Below, one piece after another: positions 28,816 to 34,813 of a DNA stretch of 38,231 nucleotides (within the stretch, counting starts at the first letter, position 1; each line of letters begins with the position of its first letter). A program made the position numbers and the translations under genes. Under the pieces are notes generated by a model. That model was not told the DNA's origin and ran no database searches. It worked only from the letters and a program-made list of their open reading frames with translations. The stretch comes from Candidatus Thorarchaeota archaeon (lineage in GTDB: Archaea; Asgardarchaeota; Thorarchaeia; Thorarchaeales; Thorarchaeaceae): contig JBHIAE010000027.1 in NCBI GenBank assembly GCA_046758445.1, forward strand, positions 1-38,231, read 5' to 3'.

Positions 28816-29892
28816 TCAGACTTCGTCCATTCCAATGACCCACTCTTTGCTCTTTGAGAGCGTTAAGAGAATGTCATCACACACGGCTTGAAAGTCCTCA
28901 TATGTACCATATTCACCGCCAGCCGCATATGGGTGACCACCACCATTGAACAGACCTGCCGCAGCATTACATAGGGTCGTTTCACGGCCTCTCCTGAAGC
29001 CAAGAAGTCCTCCTTGACTCACAGTTATCAAGAGGTCTGCCACCTCCAAAGATTGTCCTTCAATCAGGAGATTGCTGGAATCAGCCAGAAACGTACCAAG
29101 GTCTGTCGTTGTCACCCCTGTTGGAATCTCAACAATACGAACAAGACGGCCGTGAACGACTTGGTCGCAGTGTGCCGCCAGCGCCTTCTTCATCTTCTTC
29201 AGACGCTCCTTACGGTATTGACGCACCTGTCGTTCCAGCAACGAATCTTTGAATCGCTTCGCTGCGTCATCCCAAAGCCCTTCGACGCCCTGTTCTGCCA
29301 GCTTGACGAGTAAGGGCTTGATCGCATCGTTCATATCTTCCTTCTTGTTCATCGCGGTGAATCTTGTTATCGAGAGAGCATCTGTAAGTGCCACTGCGGC
29401 ATCGATCTCTCGAAGATTGAAGTCAGTATCATGGGCAATCCTGGCGAGCTCCATCGAAATCTCGTCGCGAGGCATCAGTACTTTGTGTGCAATCTCCGTT
29501 GCACAATAGTCATGATTGACCTTCAGTACGGGATTGTTCTCGAGGGTTAGAACAGTCTTAACAGCTCGATCACTCCAGTGATGATGATCCAGCCAGACAA
29601 CTCTGCAACCTTGAGATACCGCCCTTGATAGACCACTAGAAACGAGATTAAGTGAACTATCATCGATACTCAAGTCTGTGACAACGATCAGTGTTTGTCG
29701 ACGGTTGGCCACTTTCGAGAAGACAGGCTCAAATAATCCATAGTCCGTGAGCATAACGTCGAAATCTAGTCCTTTGGATTTCGCATAACGCCAGACGACA
29801 GCGGCCGAGTTTAGGCCATCTACGTCTTTGTCGTGGGAAATCGAAAGCAGCGAATTGACCTTCCCGGTCCTCGCATTGTTGTCAACGCCCAT
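28816..29892 (-). CDS. DHH/DHHA1 family phosphoesterase (NanoRNase-like)
   Basis: SHDKDVDG, TDL, WLDHH, GGGHPYAAGG. Confidence 0.9.
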   Translation of the reverse strand: MGVDNNARTGKVNSLLSISHDKDVDGLNSAAVVWRYAKSKGLDFDVMLTDYGLFEPVFSKVANRRQTLIVVTDLSIDDSSLNLVSSGLSRAVSQGCRVVWLDHHHWSDRAVKTVLTLENNPVLKVNHDYCATEIAHKVLMPRDEISMELARIAHDTDFNLREIDAAVALTDALSITRFTAMNKKEDMNDAIKPLLVKLAEQGVEGLWDDAAKRFKDSLLERQVRQYRKERLKKMKKALAAHCDQVVHGRLVRIVEIPTGVTTTDLGTFLADSSNLLIEGQSLEVADLLITVSQGGLLGFRRGRETTLCNAAAGLFNGGGHPYAAGGEYGTYEDFQAVCDDILLTLSKSKEWVIGMDEV

Positions 29893-30006
29893 GGTCCGTC
29901 TTGATGCTCACTGGAGTACGCCTTTTGTTTCTTTCCTCTGTGTGCATTCCTTCTACTGTATCATACGGAAGTGTTTTGTGTCGCGTCTATTGGATAAGGC
30001 CTGAGC

Positions 30007-31899
30007 TTGACCGAGATGGCAGAACCCGACTCCAGCAGGGTCTTGATGACCGGGAATGAAGCCATTGCGAGAGGTGCGATTGAGGCAGGGGTGCGGTTCT
30101 GCTCTTCATATCCGGGAACGCCATCGACCGAAATTGCAGCTACCATCATGCAGTATGCGGAGAAGTTGGGAATATACGCGGAGTGGAGTGTTAACGAGAA
30201 GGTTGCCCTCGAGGCTGCGGCGGGAGCAAGCTGGGCGGGCTTGCCGGCAATCTGCTCAATGAAATCACTCGGTCTAAATGTCGCTTCTGACTTCCTGCTC
30301 AACGTCAATCTGTCGGGCTCGGGCAGCGGGGGCTTGGTCGTTGTCGTTTGCGACGACCCCAGAGGTCACTCATCAAGTAATGAACAGGACTCGCGATTCT
30401 ATGCCAAGGCCGCAAGAGTCCCGCTTCTTGAGCCTTCCAGCTATCAAGAGGCGAAGGAAGTCATGACCTTTGCCTACGATCTTTCCAGGAAACACGAAAT
30501 CCCGGTGATTGTCCGCAGCACAACTAGGCTGAGCCATTCTCGAGGCATTGTGGAGCTTGGTGAGAGCAGGGAGTGGACTCCGGAAGGGCCACTCAAGGTT
30601 TCTGAGAATCTGTTCAACATACCCAACCCCCACCTTCGTCATCGAGACCTGTTGCTGAAGATTGATGATGTTGCAGGAGAATTCGAGAACTGTTCGTTCA
30701 ACCGTATTCATGGACCCACAAAGAGGGGAATCCTCACAATATCATCTGGAATCTGTCAGAGATATGCGGAGGAAGCTGTGGAGAAACTCGGACTACAACA
30801 TGCACGAAGACTTGGTCTTGTTACCACTCACCCCATCCCCAAGGGCCTCGTAGCTGATGCTGTCAAGAGAGCATCAGAAGTTCTGTTCTTGGAAGAGGTA
30901 GACTCCTTCATTGAGGACGAGATTCGAGCCATTTCAACTGAGGAAGGTATTGGAGGAAAAGTGAGCTTCCACGGAAGACGATCGGGAGAAATTCCTGGCT
31001 ATGGAGAGATGAACACTGGCAAGGCCATAGTTGCGCTCAGAGAGGTGTTGGGCATCGAACCGCCTGCCGTAGACCAATCAATCATGTCGGCAATTGAGGA
31101 TGCAAGGAATTTACTAATACCTAGACCGCTGACCTTCTGTGCGGGGTGTACGCATAGGAATGCCTACTGGGCGATTCGTAAGGTAAGAGAGAACCTTGGA
31201 GAGAATCTTGTTGTTGCAGGAGACATAGGGTGTTACTCGCTCGGTGTCTTCTACGATGAGGCTATGAACACTATGCAGGCGATGGGCTCAGGTATCGGAG
31301 TTGCCACTGGGCTTGGCCAGCTTGAAAGATTCGGTCTAACCACCAAGATTGTAGCGGTTGCAGGTGATTCAACCTTCTTCCACGCGTGCATCCCGGCTCT
31401 TGTCAATGCTAAGCATAAGAAGGCGGATCTGACCTTCCTGATCCTCGACAACTCCACTACGGCAATGACTGGGTTCCAACAACACCCAGGATCATCTGAG
31501 CAAAACACCGAGCATCGGCGAGTGAGTATTGAACAGATTGTTCGTGCAGTTGAGCCAGATATTGTCGAAGTTGCTGACGCAACCGATATTCCAACGACTT
31601 TAGCTGTGGTGAATGATGCAATAACAAAGACAGGATTGAAGGTCATCATCCTCAACAGCATATGCCGGCTGGAGGAACAGAGGCTTGGCGAAACCTACGA
31701 TGAACTGCCAGGGATTGTAGTAGATTCTGACTCATGTGTCGGCGAAGATTGCATGGTCTGTGTGAGTCAATTTGGCTGCAATGCATTAGGTTGGGAAAGC
31801 AGGTTAGGCATTCCAATCATTCTTGATCACGTATGCACGAAATGTGGAGCCTGCATTGCTGTGTGTCCTCAGAACGCAATCATGGAGGATGAAACTTGA
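30007..31899 (+). CDS. iorA: Indolepyruvate:ferredoxin oxidoreductase alpha subunit
   Basis: MTGNEAIARGA, YPGTPSTEI, NEKVALE, SSNEQDSR, FCAGCTHR, GDIGCY, GDSTFFH, LDNSTTAMTGFQ, C-terminal ferredoxin CTKCGACIAVCP. Confidence 0.95.
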   Translation: MTEMAEPDSSRVLMTGNEAIARGAIEAGVRFCSSYPGTPSTEIAATIMQYAEKLGIYAEWSVNEKVALEAAAGASWAGLPAICSMKSLGLNVASDFLLNVNLSGSGSGGLVVVVCDDPRGHSSSNEQDSRFYAKAARVPLLEPSSYQEAKEVMTFAYDLSRKHEIPVIVRSTTRLSHSRGIVELGESREWTPEGPLKVSENLFNIPNPHLRHRDLLLKIDDVAGEFENCSFNRIHGPTKRGILTISSGICQRYAEEAVEKLGLQHARRLGLVTTHPIPKGLVADAVKRASEVLFLEEVDSFIEDEIRAISTEEGIGGKVSFHGRRSGEIPGYGEMNTGKAIVALREVLGIEPPAVDQSIMSAIEDARNLLIPRPLTFCAGCTHRNAYWAIRKVRENLGENLVVAGDIGCYSLGVFYDEAMNTMQAMGSGIGVATGLGQLERFGLTTKIVAVAGDSTFFHACIPALVNAKHKKADLTFLILDNSTTAMTGFQQHPGSSEQNTEHRRVSIEQIVRAVEPDIVEVADATDIPTTLAVVNDAITKTGLKVIILNSICRLEEQRLGETYDELPGIVVDSDSCVGEDCMVCVSQFGCNALGWESRLGIPIILDHVCTKCGACIAVCPQNAIMEDET

Positions 31900-32510
31900 C
31901 TAGCAGCTACAACATCCTGATTGCAGGAGTCGGCGGACAGGGCAATCTAATGTGCGGGAGGATTCTTGGCGAGGCCGCCATGCGAATGAACCTTAGGCCT
32001 GTAATTGGCGACACCTTCGGAGCCTCCCGACGAGGCGGAACGGTGTATACACATCTAAGAATCAGCGAACATCACGTGGGACCACTGATTCCTGAAAGTG
32101 AGGCGAGCTTTGTACTAGGACTAGAACCAATGGAAACTCTAAGAGCCGTCGTGAGGTATGGAGGAGAGAAGACTGTCATTCTCTTCAGCACACAGAAAGT
32201 GGAAACTGGAGATTCATTGGCCGGAAACCTCACCTACCCCTCTATTGGTGAACTCACGAAAGCACTTGAATCGATCTCAGAAGATGTGTACGCACTGGAT
32301 CCGAAAAGGATATTGGATGAACTTGGGACTACGCGTGTCCTAAACTCGTACATGTTGGGTGCACTTACTGGGCTGAACAGAACGCGACTAGAACGAAACG
32401 AAGTGCGGGAACTAGTCGGGTCAATGACGAAACCTTCTGACACGAATCTGGCCGCTTTTGATGCGGGTCTGGAAGACCTCTCAGATCTGCTGAAGAGTAA
32501 GAAACAGTAG
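31896..32510 (+). CDS. iorB: Indolepyruvate:ferredoxin oxidoreductase beta subunit
   Basis: NILIAGVGGQG, GASRRGGTV, LEPME, NSYMLGAL, NLAAFDAG; TTGA overlap with iorA. Confidence 0.93.
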   Translation: MTSSYNILIAGVGGQGNLMCGRILGEAAMRMNLRPVIGDTFGASRRGGTVYTHLRISEHHVGPLIPESEASFVLGLEPMETLRAVVRYGGEKTVILFSTQKVETGDSLAGNLTYPSIGELTKALESISEDVYALDPKRILDELGTTRVLNSYMLGALTGLNRTRLERNEVRELVGSMTKPSDTNLAAFDAGLEDLSDLLKSKKQ

Positions 32511-32515
32511 ACGAT

Positions 32516-34813
32516 CTAACGTTGCTTTTTGGCTTCTGTAGCCTTCCGGGCGTCTCTCCACATGAGTTCTGCCAATACTGTGAACATATCGGCAACTCCG
32601 TCACCTGTTTTTGCGGAGGATTCCATGTAGAGGAAGCCTTGGTCTTCAGCCCACTTCTTTGCCTCAGTGGGGGGTACTGCTCTGTCAGGGAGGTCAATCT
32701 TGTTCCCGACTACAATCATAGGTACTCTAACACCGATTGACTCGTCAGCCTCAGCTACCCACTTAGACAGCTCGGTGAAAGAACGTCTTCGCGTAACGTC
32801 GTAGACAAGGATGATTCCAGCCGCGCCACTGTAGTACATCTTCCGTACTGCCTTGAACCTGGCCTGACCTGCCACGTCCCAGCACTGTAGCTTGATGCCA
32901 ACAGCATATTCGGGTTCTGGTGGTGAGATGTGTGTGAGCTTCACCGCAAACTGCGATCCAATCGTGGTCTTGTAGTCTCGCTCGAAGACTCCAGTGACAT
33001 ATCGGTTCACAAGAGTAGTCTTGCCGACTGCACCCTCTCCAGTTACCATTGTCTTGAAGAGATACGTATAGCTGTCAGTTGGAGCGCCAGGGCGGGGCGG
33101 TTTGAGAGTTCTTGCCCGAATCTCACTGACAAGGGCGCTCTCTTCGGGAGTTTCCTCAATGGCAACGACAGAGGGCTCAATCACAACTGGTTCCTCCATC
33201 ATCGCTGCGACATCATCGTATGCTGAGAGATCTGGAGTGCCGGCATCGTCAACTCCAAACAGTTGATCGAGGAGCTGTTCTGCCTCCTTGAGCGATTCAG
33301 CGGCCGCTTCATCAGGAGCAGTCATCTTCAGGATTTCGGCGGCCCGGTCCCGGTCAACTGAACTGAATCCCGCCTCTATCTCCACAGCTTCTTGCTCAAC
33401 CACTGGTGACTCTGGTTCTGCCTGAAAAGCCACTGGAGGCATGGCCGCAGGGGCTGCCACTGCAAGCCCTTTCTCAACAAGAATCGCGGTTTCCGGAGTT
33501 GTCACCTGTTTGACTTGTCCGGAAGCATCAGTCCACATAAGCACAATGGGTCTCATGATCACGGTCCCTTCCGCGGTCGGCATGAGCTCAACCTCAACAA
33601 ACTTCGTTTCTCTAGGACCTAGGTCAAAACGAAGCTGTGGGTCTGTAACATCCAGGTGATCCTTCGGAAACCAGTACAGCTTTCCTGTGATTCCAGCAAC
33701 TGGCTCATCGCTGATGTTTGCAACTGTCACACGGCCGACGAGGTTTACCCCGGTCTTGGCCTCAGCACTGACCTCAAAGCTAGGAATCACTTGGTATAGC
33801 CCTTCGATGACTCTGAGAGGGCCGTTCGAGATTCCGACGAGAATCTCCTTTCTGTTGTCACCGCCTGCGTTTCCAACGCTGAGTGAGAGGATCTTCTCGC
33901 CAATGTTCACTGAAGCGATTTCTTGGAGTTCAGCCAATTGGAGATTGTAGAATCTTACTTTGTAGTCAGAAGTGGCGATTATCACCTCATCCATGTGGTC
34001 TGCATTGACCTCTTCCATCGATATGGATAGCGCATTCACGCCTTCGAGCTTGGCAAACAGGTCAAGCTTACTCTCCTCGTTACGATACACTCGAACAGAT
34101 CCATCCCTGGTGACTACTCCAAGCTCCATCTTGCGATCGCCCAGAATATCGCCTGCTTCAACTGAGATAATGGGAGATGGGAGGTCTAACATCTCAATCT
34201 GTTCAACGGAGTCGTCCCGAATCTTGAAGACTCTGAGAGTTCCATCAAGGTTCCCGGTGACAATCTCGTCTATCTCGTCACCAATTACATCACAAGTGCC
34301 GATGGTTATTGGCATGTCTTGAAGCTGATGCCGCGCGTACTCACTCAACCTGTTCTCTGCGTCCATCTGAATGACTCGGAGAGTAGAGTCACTACCCCCC
34401 ACCAGAATCTCATTCTTCTCGTCACCGGTGACGTCCGTGACCACAACCGTAGTGATGAATCGATCAACAGGATGCTCGGCCAACATCTCAAGTCGTCCAC
34501 TGGGAGCAAATCTGTAGATCTGGAGTGTTCCGGATTCACCTGGTACTTCTCCTGGAGCCAGACTACGACCGACAACTATCTCCATCTGCCCGTCATTGTC
34601 TGCATCAGCAATCTGCACTGAGAGAATACTGCCTTCCAAGTCTTGCTGGGCCAAGAATGTGATCTCGGGGCCATTAGCATCATACAGCCTGAGAACTCCG
34701 TCCCGGTCCCCAGTACACAGCTCTGCGCTGCCTGACCCTGTGACGTCTCCAACAGCAATAGCTGTGGTACTCTTGTCATCCTCTATCTCGAAGAGAGTCT
34801 TGGGCGTGGTCAA
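32516..34813 (-). CDS. FG-GAP-type 7-bladed beta-propeller + Ig-like domain + acidic linker + C-terminal Rab-like small GTPase
   Basis: Seven D-x-x-G-D-x-x-x-E-I repeats; GTPase G1 GEGAVGKT, G2 YKTTIG, G3 WDVAGQ, G4 NKID, G5 SSAK; RabF-like IGSQF, KLQCW, RFKAV, YYSGA, LVYDVT. Confidence 0.9.
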   Translation of the reverse strand: MTTPKTLFEIEDDKSTTAIAVGDVTGSGSAELCTGDRDGVLRLYDANGPEITFLAQQDLEGSILSVQIADADNDGQMEIVVGRSLAPGEVPGESGTLQIYRFAPSGRLEMLAEHPVDRFITTVVVTDVTGDEKNEILVGGSDSTLRVIQMDAENRLSEYARHQLQDMPITIGTCDVIGDEIDEIVTGNLDGTLRVFKIRDDSVEQIEMLDLPSPIISVEAGDILGDRKMELGVVTRDGSVRVYRNEESKLDLFAKLEGVNALSISMEEVNADHMDEVIIATSDYKVRFYNLQLAELQEIASVNIGEKILSLSVGNAGGDNRKEILVGISNGPLRVIEGLYQVIPSFEVSAEAKTGVNLVGRVTVANISDEPVAGITGKLYWFPKDHLDVTDPQLRFDLGPRETKFVEVELMPTAEGTVIMRPIVLMWTDASGQVKQVTTPETAILVEKGLAVAAPAAMPPVAFQAEPESPVVEQEAVEIEAGFSSVDRDRAAEILKMTAPDEAAAESLKEAEQLLDQLFGVDDAGTPDLSAYDDVAAMMEEPVVIEPSVVAIEETPEESALVSEIRARTLKPPRPGAPTDSYTYLFKTMVTGEGAVGKTTLVNRYVTGVFERDYKTTIGSQFAVKLTHISPPEPEYAVGIKLQCWDVAGQARFKAVRKMYYSGAAGIILVYDVTRRRSFTELSKWVAEADESIGVRVPMIVVGNKIDLPDRAVPPTEAKKWAEDQGFLYMESSAKTGDGVADMFTVLAELMWRDARKATEAKKQR

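Follow-up and report, generated by a model that had tools for sequence, protein, structure and literature searches.

An FG-GAP-class beta-propeller joined to a Rab-like GTPase in a single-copy protein of one Asgard order

The fusion gene and its distribution

The window analysed here, a stretch of 38,231 nucleotides (positions 1 to 38,231 of contig JBHIAE010000027.1, assembly GCA_046758445.1), comes from a Candidatus Thorarchaeota archaeon and carries on its reverse strand a gene, P0001, whose 765-residue product joins a beta-propeller, an immunoglobulin (Ig)-like beta-sandwich, an acidic linker and a Rab-like GTPase domain. The host genome (3.25 Mb in 113 contigs, 92.7% complete) has about 17 other small-GTPase genes; the fusion is single-copy. 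The gene is a single intact reading frame with a TAG codon two codons upstream of its TTG start. We take this start to be correct because it agrees with that of the orthologues (consensus MxSPKILFEIEDD). The gene and its parts, all on the reverse strand, are as follows.

32516-34813, reverse strand: whole gene, the propeller-Ig-linker-Rab-like GTPase fusion (765 residues, TTG start, stop codon at 32516-32518)
33794-34813, reverse strand: seven-bladed FG-GAP-class beta-propeller, residues 1-340 (AlphaFold2, Pfam, Foldseek, VIA-align)
34580-34606, reverse strand: DADNDGQME of blade 2, residues 70-78 (regular-expression scan and orthologue conservation)
33470-33793, reverse strand: Ig-like beta-sandwich, residues 341-448 (AlphaFold2 strands, orthologue alignment, sub-threshold Pfam matches)
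33149-33469, reverse strand: acidic, Ala/Glu/Pro/Val-rich flexible linker, residues 449-555 (AlphaFold2 confidence and charge)
33257-33310, reverse strand: amphipathic helix of the linker, SLKEAEQLLDQLFG, residues 502-519 (AlphaFold2 helix and linker alignment)
33065-33148, reverse strand: N-terminal extension preceding the G domain (pre-G extension), residues 556-583 (predicted local distance difference test, pLDDT, of 75-86, and alignment)
32558-33064, reverse strand: Rab-like G domain, residues 584-752 (Pfam Ras, Protein Data Bank (PDB) matches, alignment, tree)
32897-32932, reverse strand: interswitch (beta2-beta3) hairpin, HISPPEPEYAVG, residues 628-639 (gaps in the phmmer alignment and conservation)
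32516-32557, reverse strand: basic C-terminal tail, residues 753-765 plus the stop codon, which continues helix alpha5 and holds no cysteine

All four elements that a sequence-only reading of this DNA had described (propeller, sandwich, acidic linker and Rab-like domain) are present, as judged from the open reading frame, Pfam and AlphaFold2. The AlphaFold2 model of residues 1-450, built with 31 orthologues as input, has a pLDDT of 92.6 and a predicted template modelling score (pTM) of 0.87; the corresponding values for the full-length protein are 77 and 0.58. In the orthologue alignment, mean column identity is 0.80 in the propeller, 0.73 in the Ig domain, 0.54 (the lowest value) in the linker and 0.90 in the G domain. 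The propeller carries a net charge of -34, the Ig domain -5, the linker -21 and the G domain +5. Neither a signal peptide nor a transmembrane helix was found, the highest Kyte-Doolittle hydropathy over any 19-residue window of the protein being 1.31. This bears out the earlier claim of a cytoplasmic protein with no signal peptide: GTPases require cytoplasmic GTP, and a GTPase fusion devoid of any hydrophobic segment is predicted to reside in the cytoplasm.

A survey of the fusion across Asgard archaea, proposed with the sequence-only reading, covered 400 genomes of the phylum with residues 1-450 as query, and its outcome was split: conservation within one order, absence elsewhere. An orthologue is found in 80 of the 85 genomes of the window's family, with 62-95% identity over the query and an open frame of 757-826 residues wherever the contig leaves the gene uncut. 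The single genome of a sister family in the same order also has the orthologue, truncated by a contig end. Other families among the 400 genomes showed no fusion, just propeller proteins of 22-36% identity without a GTPase. In a collection of 5.8 billion proteins, the best 120 of 167 matches are all full-length fusions (740-826 residues, 63-100% identity); database relatives carry the name Thorarchaeota, as does AM326_07550 of SMTZ-45. A phmmer search of residues 1-450 against 1.84 billion representative sequences returned three clusters of the full-length type, one of which (P0124; 781 residues) has 40% identity to the window protein, shares its Pfam architecture and has 90% identity to the fragment from the sister family. 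Taken together, these data show that the fusion is old within its order and strongly constrained. It is confined to one order of Thorarchaeia-type Asgards and is not an Asgard-wide trait; this restriction weakens its bearing on eukaryogenesis.

No published description of a propeller-Ig-Rab fusion was found in the literature on Asgard small GTPases, the BBSome and FG-GAP or other beta-propellers. Tran et al. 2024 (PMC10933270), who solved the structure of Thor-Rab and surveyed Asgard GTPase architectures, describe fusions to longin and roadblock domains and make no mention of propellers. According to Liu et al. 2020 (bioRxiv 10.1101/2020.10.19.343400), most multidomain architectures of eukaryotic signature proteins are lineage-specific products of domain shuffling, a description that the present fusion fits. 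The architecture is thus apparently undescribed; its components, an FG-GAP-class propeller and a Rab-like GTPase of Asgard type, are known ones.

The propeller and its likeness to BBS proteins and ITFG2

In the AlphaFold2 model, residues 1-340 form 28 strands arranged as seven four-stranded blades, whose motifs can be read in the sequence (for example DADNDGQMEIVVG, DVTGDEKNEILVG and DVIGDEIDEIVTG). Pfam matches this segment, above the cut-off in every case, to FG-GAP_3 (PF13517; 68.1 bits, cut-off 26.9), Beta-prop_BBS7 (60.7), BBS2_Mid (46.9), PHTB1_N (38.1) and Itfg2 (33.5). Score and blade number place the propeller in the FG-GAP class. In line with the sequence-only reading, its best structural matches are BBS2, BBS9, BBS7 and ITFG2. 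Foldseek ranks BBS2 first (2.5e-18), followed by BBS9 (8e-18), BBS7 (6.7e-15), ITFG2 (6e-14) and BBS1, with CRTAC1, integrin alpha chains (about 1e-12) and COPI at lower ranks. VIA-align gives BBS2 a Z-score of 35.5 (root-mean-square deviation, rmsd, 2.2; 296 residues aligned; 18% identity) and ITFG2 one of 35.0 (rmsd 2.7; 325 residues aligned). The predicted fold of the propeller thus matches that of BBS2, BBS7 and BBS9. Near-ties follow, namely Ciao1 (33.3), LGI1 (32.7), alpha-COP (32.4) and RACK1 (32.2), the WD40 propellers lying 2-3 Z units below BBS2. Since Z-scores fail to separate BBS2 and ITFG2 (about 35) from WD40 proteins (32-33), geometry alone cannot settle the affinity of the propeller.

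Sequence comparisons place this likeness at the level of the class. A profile of the family, run against PDB sequences, retrieves ITFG2 (3.5e-8, 36 bits) and BBS7 (1.9e-4, 23.5 bits), then WD40 proteins and BBS2 (0.015), and no integrins. Other FG-GAP proteins from the representative search served as controls: P0132, P0137 and P0139 (7-15 repeats) and P0138, P0144 and P0164 (single propeller). They match BBS2_Mid with 28-67 bits and, except for P0137, both Itfg2 (34-63) and BBS7 (38-61); three also match BBS1 (22-56). The top PDB matches of P0138 and P0139 are ITFG2 (8.8e-7 and 8.5e-11, respectively) and BBS2, whereas the window propeller, searched as a single sequence, reaches 0.0019, a weaker value than those of the two controls. 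At least one of the FG-GAP proteins, P0139, carries a DUF11 domain, which is typical of cell-surface proteins. The closest non-orthologous relatives among the 1.84 billion representatives are prokaryotic FG-GAP proteins (90-150 bits, 28-35% identity per stretch); the highest scores (E 3e-39 to 7e-26) belong to multi-repeat proteins of 1000-5000 residues. These share with the fusion the blade motif D-x-x-G-D-x-x-x-E-[IL]-[IV]-x-G of FG-GAP/VCBS proteins (PF13517). They differ from it in that the best scorers have many repeats, whereas the fusion has exactly one closed propeller, cytoplasmic and attached to a GTPase.

Because unrelated prokaryotic FG-GAP controls give the same BBS matches in Pfam and the same ITFG2 and BBS2 matches in the PDB, the likeness to BBS proteins and ITFG2, although real, is a property of the whole FG-GAP propeller class and shows no ancestry. 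By sequence, the propeller appears to have no affinity to BBS proteins beyond that of generic FG-GAP proteins. The specific BBSome relationship that the sequence-only reading had seen is therefore not upheld: the controls match as well or better, WD40 propellers come within 2-3 Z units, and the additional domains of BBS2, BBS7 and BBS9 are absent. That reading had also set BBS/ITFG affinity against closeness to bacterial VCBS proteins. In the event, the closest sequence relatives are prokaryotic FG-GAP proteins, and the BBS/ITFG affinity exists too, though class-wide. The fusion protein is probably no orthologue of a BBSome or KICSTOR subunit. ITFG2 of KICSTOR (9V6E, 9O5A), its best profile match among solved structures, is likewise a cytoplasmic FG-GAP-type propeller; however, it has neither Ig domain nor GTPase besides the propeller and belongs, with KPTN, SZT2 and C12orf66, to a complex of four subunits in the Rag/mTORC1 pathway; control FG-GAP proteins match it even better.

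DADNDGQME in blade 2 is the sole canonical DxDxDGxxE motif detected by a regular-expression scan of the fusion protein. It is nearly invariant in the 31 orthologues, which include the 40%-identical sister-family protein; D70, A71, N73, D74, G75 and E78 are strictly so. Loops of the DxDxDGxxE type bind Ca2+ in the FG-GAP repeats of integrins, and the blade 2 loop may, by analogy, be a putative Ca2+-binding site.

The fusion partners of cytoplasmic FG-GAP-class propellers vary from one Asgard lineage to another, and BBS7/ITFG2-like propellers have already been catalogued in these archaea. An October 2026 preprint (PMC13734099) labels one Asgard-eukaryote structural cluster BBS7/ITFG2 and matches it to a catalogue by Kostlbacher et al. 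2026, the main text of which makes no mention of BBS, ITFG2 or propellers. The host genome has a stand-alone propeller paralogue of 336 residues (G000:C1:112207-113169, forward strand, equivalent to L024:1690-2700), 23% identical to residues 7-331 of the fusion and devoid of Ig and GTPase domains; similar proteins of 335-357 residues occur in other genomes of the family. Another Asgard family, in which 60 of 135 genomes give a propeller match, has a 552-residue cytoplasmic propeller protein (L021:1048-2706, reverse strand, genome G261), best matched by Beta-prop_BBS7 (77.6 bits, vs 44 for FG-GAP_3) and ending in a helical, winged-helix-looking C-terminus of about 200 residues.

The Ig domain, the linker and the Rab-like GTPase

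The propeller is followed by a separate beta-sandwich (strands spanning residues 342-447, pLDDT about 90), with the motifs GK.YWFPK and RPIVLMWTD conserved among orthologues. Sequence methods place this domain weakly. Among the 31 orthologues, scanned at E up to 10, ASH (PF15780) is matched below threshold in 27 (best E 3.7e-5; the window copy scores 13.9 bits against a cut-off of 27), Transglut_C in 16, fn3_6 in 11, BatD in 9 and TRAPPC13_C in 3. The Ig family profile retrieves chance-level matches alone from PDB sequences (E 0.3 or worse), and scans of the whole protein and of the Ig domain gave no Pfam match to the C-terminal, GAE or platform families of BBS proteins. The sandwich of about 110 residues described in the sequence-only reading is thus there in the model; the adaptin-ear affinity suggested for it leaves no signal in the Pfam scan of the orthologues. 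Foldseek alignments extend beyond the propeller (469-628 columns) with BBS2, BBS7 and BBS9 and with integrin alpha chains as well, which means no more than that both groups have a sandwich after the propeller.

The linker spans about 107 residues rich in Ala, Glu, Val, Pro and Asp. Its pLDDT falls below 50 at residues 456-504 and 520-555, with the helix 502-519 in between. Three islands in this region are conserved within the window's family: GTGFG, the amphipathic helix SLKEAEQLLDQLFG and the pre-G extension. The sister family keeps just the last of these, the helix being conserved in the window's family alone. Beyond the linker, the full-length model shows an ordered segment (556-583), a normal small-GTPase fold and a long end helix (740-764).

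Residues 587-750 match Pfam Ras with an E-value of 6e-45 (153.1 bits, cut-off 21.6), and TIGR00231 with 80.7 bits (cut-off 42.5). As the sequence-only reading had stated, all G motifs and the catalytic glutamine are in place: G1 at 592-599 (GEGAVGKT), G2 at T617, G3 at 646-650 (WDVAGQ, with Gln650), G4 at 704-707 (NKID) and G5 at 732-735 (SAK), every one of them invariant in the 31 orthologues. Motifs and curated cut-offs identify the domain as a Ras-superfamily small GTPase. Its best match among PDB sequences is a Thorarchaeota Rab (7EZB, 1.5e-41), and the other 59 of the 60 matches listed are eukaryotic Rabs (Rab14, 30, 35, 43, 1, 4, 25, 2, 11, 10 and 8, and Sec4). The nearest stand-alone proteins are 182-residue Asgard proteins named "Rab family GTPase" (49-58% identity), a member of which matches 7EZB with 191 bits. 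In a maximum-likelihood tree of the host genome's own paralogues, the fused domains and the 182-residue proteins, the fused G domains form a single clade (support 99/97) that adjoins the 182-residue family, including the host's own copy on contig 8 (support 88/59). In the phylogeny, suggested earlier as a check, the fused domains thus lie beside Asgard Rab-like proteins; the GTPase is Rab-like, as the sequence-only reading had it, and not Roc. Sequence matches and tree together argue that the domain is an Asgard Rab-like GTPase of the Thor-Rab type, probably fully competent and branched from the stand-alone 182-residue family. A further small-GTPase paralogue of the host (G000:C12:58668-59195, reverse strand) lies in a 388-residue open frame, with its G domain at residues 13-187 and about 200 extra residues.

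The likeness to Thor-Rab (7EZB/7EZD/7EZE, PMC10933270) and to the 182-residue group includes the same G-domain sequence with all G motifs, the lack of a prenylation cysteine, and the Rab-family-like segments IGSQF, KLQCWD, RF..VR.MYYSGA and LVYDVT, along with their side-by-side branching in the tree. By eye, IGSQF, KLQCWD, RFKAVR, YYSGA and LVYDVT resemble RabF1-5, and F622, W645 and Y660/661, candidates for the hydrophobic triad (Phe, Trp, Tyr) around the switches, are invariant in the orthologues. Eukaryotic Rabs end in a hypervariable tail with a C-terminal cysteine prenylation motif, and these features are missing here: none of the 31 orthologues has any cysteine in its last 30 residues, and the tail consists of 13 basic residues. 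Thor-Rab and the 182-residue proteins, on the other hand, are single-domain, whereas in the fusion the G domain is preceded by about 580 further residues and has a longer interswitch hairpin. This hairpin, HISPPEPEYAVG, exceeds that of Rab14 by about 6 residues and that of Thor-Rab by 4, and its ISPP is conserved. Together with the short, basic, cysteine-free tail, it and the PKPPRPG-bearing pre-G extension are peculiar to the fused form. The extension (ES.LV.EIR.R.PKPPRPG...DSY.YLFK) is ordered in the model, and PKP..PG...DSY.YLFK is kept in both families.

The neighbours of the fusion gene encode a 2-oxoacid:ferredoxin oxidoreductase, a DHH protein and an ABC transporter; within the genus, the convergent iorA/iorB-like oxidoreductase and the divergent ABC transporter are kept. 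DHH-family and oxidoreductase genes adjoin the fusion gene both in the window (28816-32510) and at the sister-family locus (L026:1-9736), the DHH proteins being 49% identical. This microsynteny persists although the fusion protein itself has diverged by about 60% in sequence; no functional link is evident, and we read the conserved neighbourhood as inherited synteny. Beyond the DHH gene, the sister-family locus (L026:9794-13144, reverse strand) encodes a 319-residue Arf-like GTPase with extra sequence and a 772-residue protein devoid of Pfam matches, which could, judging from the open frames, constitute another pair of a GTPase and a large partner.

A proposed leashed GTP switch and the alternatives

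We consider it fairly probable that the protein, single-copy in one Asgard order, functions as a GTP switch to which a platform for binding other proteins is permanently attached by a leash. The G domain would cycle between GDP and GTP, and the leash would hold it within a few tens of nanometres of the very acidic propeller-Ig platform, which would provide the protein-binding surface. The nucleotide state of the G domain would then govern the interactions of the pair in one of two ways: a partner or a surface would be recruited to the platform by the GTP form, or a ligand of the platform would be brought to the GTPase. Complex prediction with the propeller-Ig part, the G domain with its extension, GTP and Mg returned a score of 0.00 in a run made without controls, which speaks neither for nor against docking.

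Several points weigh against this reading. The mechanism is modelled on the anatomy of the protein alone. No lipid anchor is present, hence no evident route to a membrane, if the protein goes there. Gene neighbours in the window and at the sister-family locus offer no functional hint. The placement of the fused clade beside the 182-residue Rab family is but moderately supported by the sequence tree (88/59), in which eukaryotic GTPases are not included.

An unlikely alternative is that the two halves act on each other. Here, the propeller-Ig part would be an autoinhibitory dock for its own G domain, or a surface resembling a guanine nucleotide exchange factor (GEF) or a GTPase-activating protein, and the whole a self-regulating switch whose output is read by other proteins. 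The covalent tether raises the local concentration of both modules, which differ in the sign of their charge (propeller -34, G domain +5), and the ordered, conserved pre-G extension and the interswitch insertion are unique to the fused form. Propeller GEFs exist, namely RCC1 for Ran and Sec12 for Sar1. Yet nothing among the top matches points specifically to RCC1 or Sec12, by sequence or by fold, and the full-length model (pTM 0.58) places the domains relative to each other without confidence.

The sequence-only reading had gone further, proposing a fused proto-coat or tether relevant to the origin of eukaryotic trafficking. Under this proposal, the propeller-Ig part would be truly homologous to BBSome-type coat subunits, or their precursor, and the GTPase its recruiting factor in the same chain. 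There are parallels: BBS2, BBS7, BBS9 and BBS1 (6VBU, 6VOA, 6XT9) combine a cytoplasmic, seven-bladed FG-GAP-like propeller with a following beta-sandwich, and the BBSome, in principle alike, employs a small GTPase, ARL6, with such propellers. BBS2, BBS9, BBS7 and BBS1 also lead the Foldseek ranking, with E-values 4-6 orders of magnitude better than those of integrins or COPI and alignments of 469-527 columns that run past the propeller; BBS2 has the top VIA-align Z-score, the Pfam matches to Beta-prop_BBS7, BBS2_Mid and PHTB1_N exceed their cut-offs, and the preprint cited above lists a BBS7/ITFG2 cluster shared by Asgards and eukaryotes. Nevertheless, unrelated prokaryotic FG-GAP controls reproduce the Pfam and PDB matches, so that the BBSome sequence affinity of the propeller is no better than theirs; WD40 propellers come close in Z-score, and prokaryotic FG-GAP proteins with many repeats are nearest by sequence. 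Where BBS2, BBS7 and BBS9 have a coiled coil, a platform and a helical C-terminus, the fusion has a single Ig sandwich, without adaptin-ear sequence signal, a disordered linker and the GTPase. The GTPase of the BBSome is a separate, Arf-like protein, whereas that of the fusion is Rab-like and covalently attached. Finally, the fusion is restricted to one order. With the FG-GAP controls, the prokaryotic nearest relatives and this restriction against it, we find a proto-coat role very unlikely.

Similarly improbable, in our judgement, is a signalling GTPase that works independently of membranes, either ROCO-like or a Ca2+-responsive regulator (of the Asgard actin cytoskeleton, for example), with the propeller as sensor or scaffold. 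The G domain does match Pfam Roc (E 1.8e-29, 103 bits), blade 2 has its one invariant DxDxDGxxE loop, a lipid anchor is missing, and green fluorescent protein fusions of those Asgard Rab-like and related proteins that Tran et al. (PMC10933270) tested were diffuse in HeLa cells rather than membrane-bound. ROCO proteins (Roc-COR, such as the propeller-bearing LRRK2) resemble the fusion in being multidomain and in pairing a Ras-superfamily G domain with a beta-propeller. In the fusion, however, the Ras model outscores Roc (153 vs 103 bits), all 60 PDB matches listed are Rabs, and the Ca2+ site is putative. The Pfam scan found no COR domain, and the protein ends 13 residues past the G domain; it therefore does not belong to the ROCO proteins. 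Furthermore, its G domain is terminal and Rab-like, and its propeller is N-terminal and of the FG-GAP rather than the WD40 type. As for a chimeric open reading frame born of misassembly or a lost stop codon, there is practically no chance of it, the same uninterrupted frame of 757-826 residues being present in 80 of the 85 family genomes, closed or near-closed genomes and many independent metagenomes among the sources.

This leaves the leashed switch as the reading we favour. Asgards have many Rab-, Arf- and Rag-like GTPases, and almost nothing is known about the processes under their control. Where such a GTPase is covalently tied to a large platform for interactions, the protein itself reveals the partner domain. 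The fusion is thus an unusually tractable entry point: with a single recombinant protein, one can follow how its conformation responds to the nucleotide, how it captures partners and whether it binds membranes. There is a slim chance that it preserves in one chain an ancient, pre-eukaryotic partnership of FG-GAP propeller and small GTPase that was later employed in BBSome-ARL6 and KICSTOR-Rag. If this were true, the fusion would offer a present-day model of a proto-adaptor or coat under GTPase control that could remodel membranes or assemble on them. Propellers of the class used by the BBSome and KICSTOR exist as cytoplasmic proteins in several Asgard families, in different fusions. Given its restriction to one order and a BBSome likeness shared by the whole class, the present fusion informs the Asgard domain toolkit and its shuffling more than the ancestry of eukaryotic coats.

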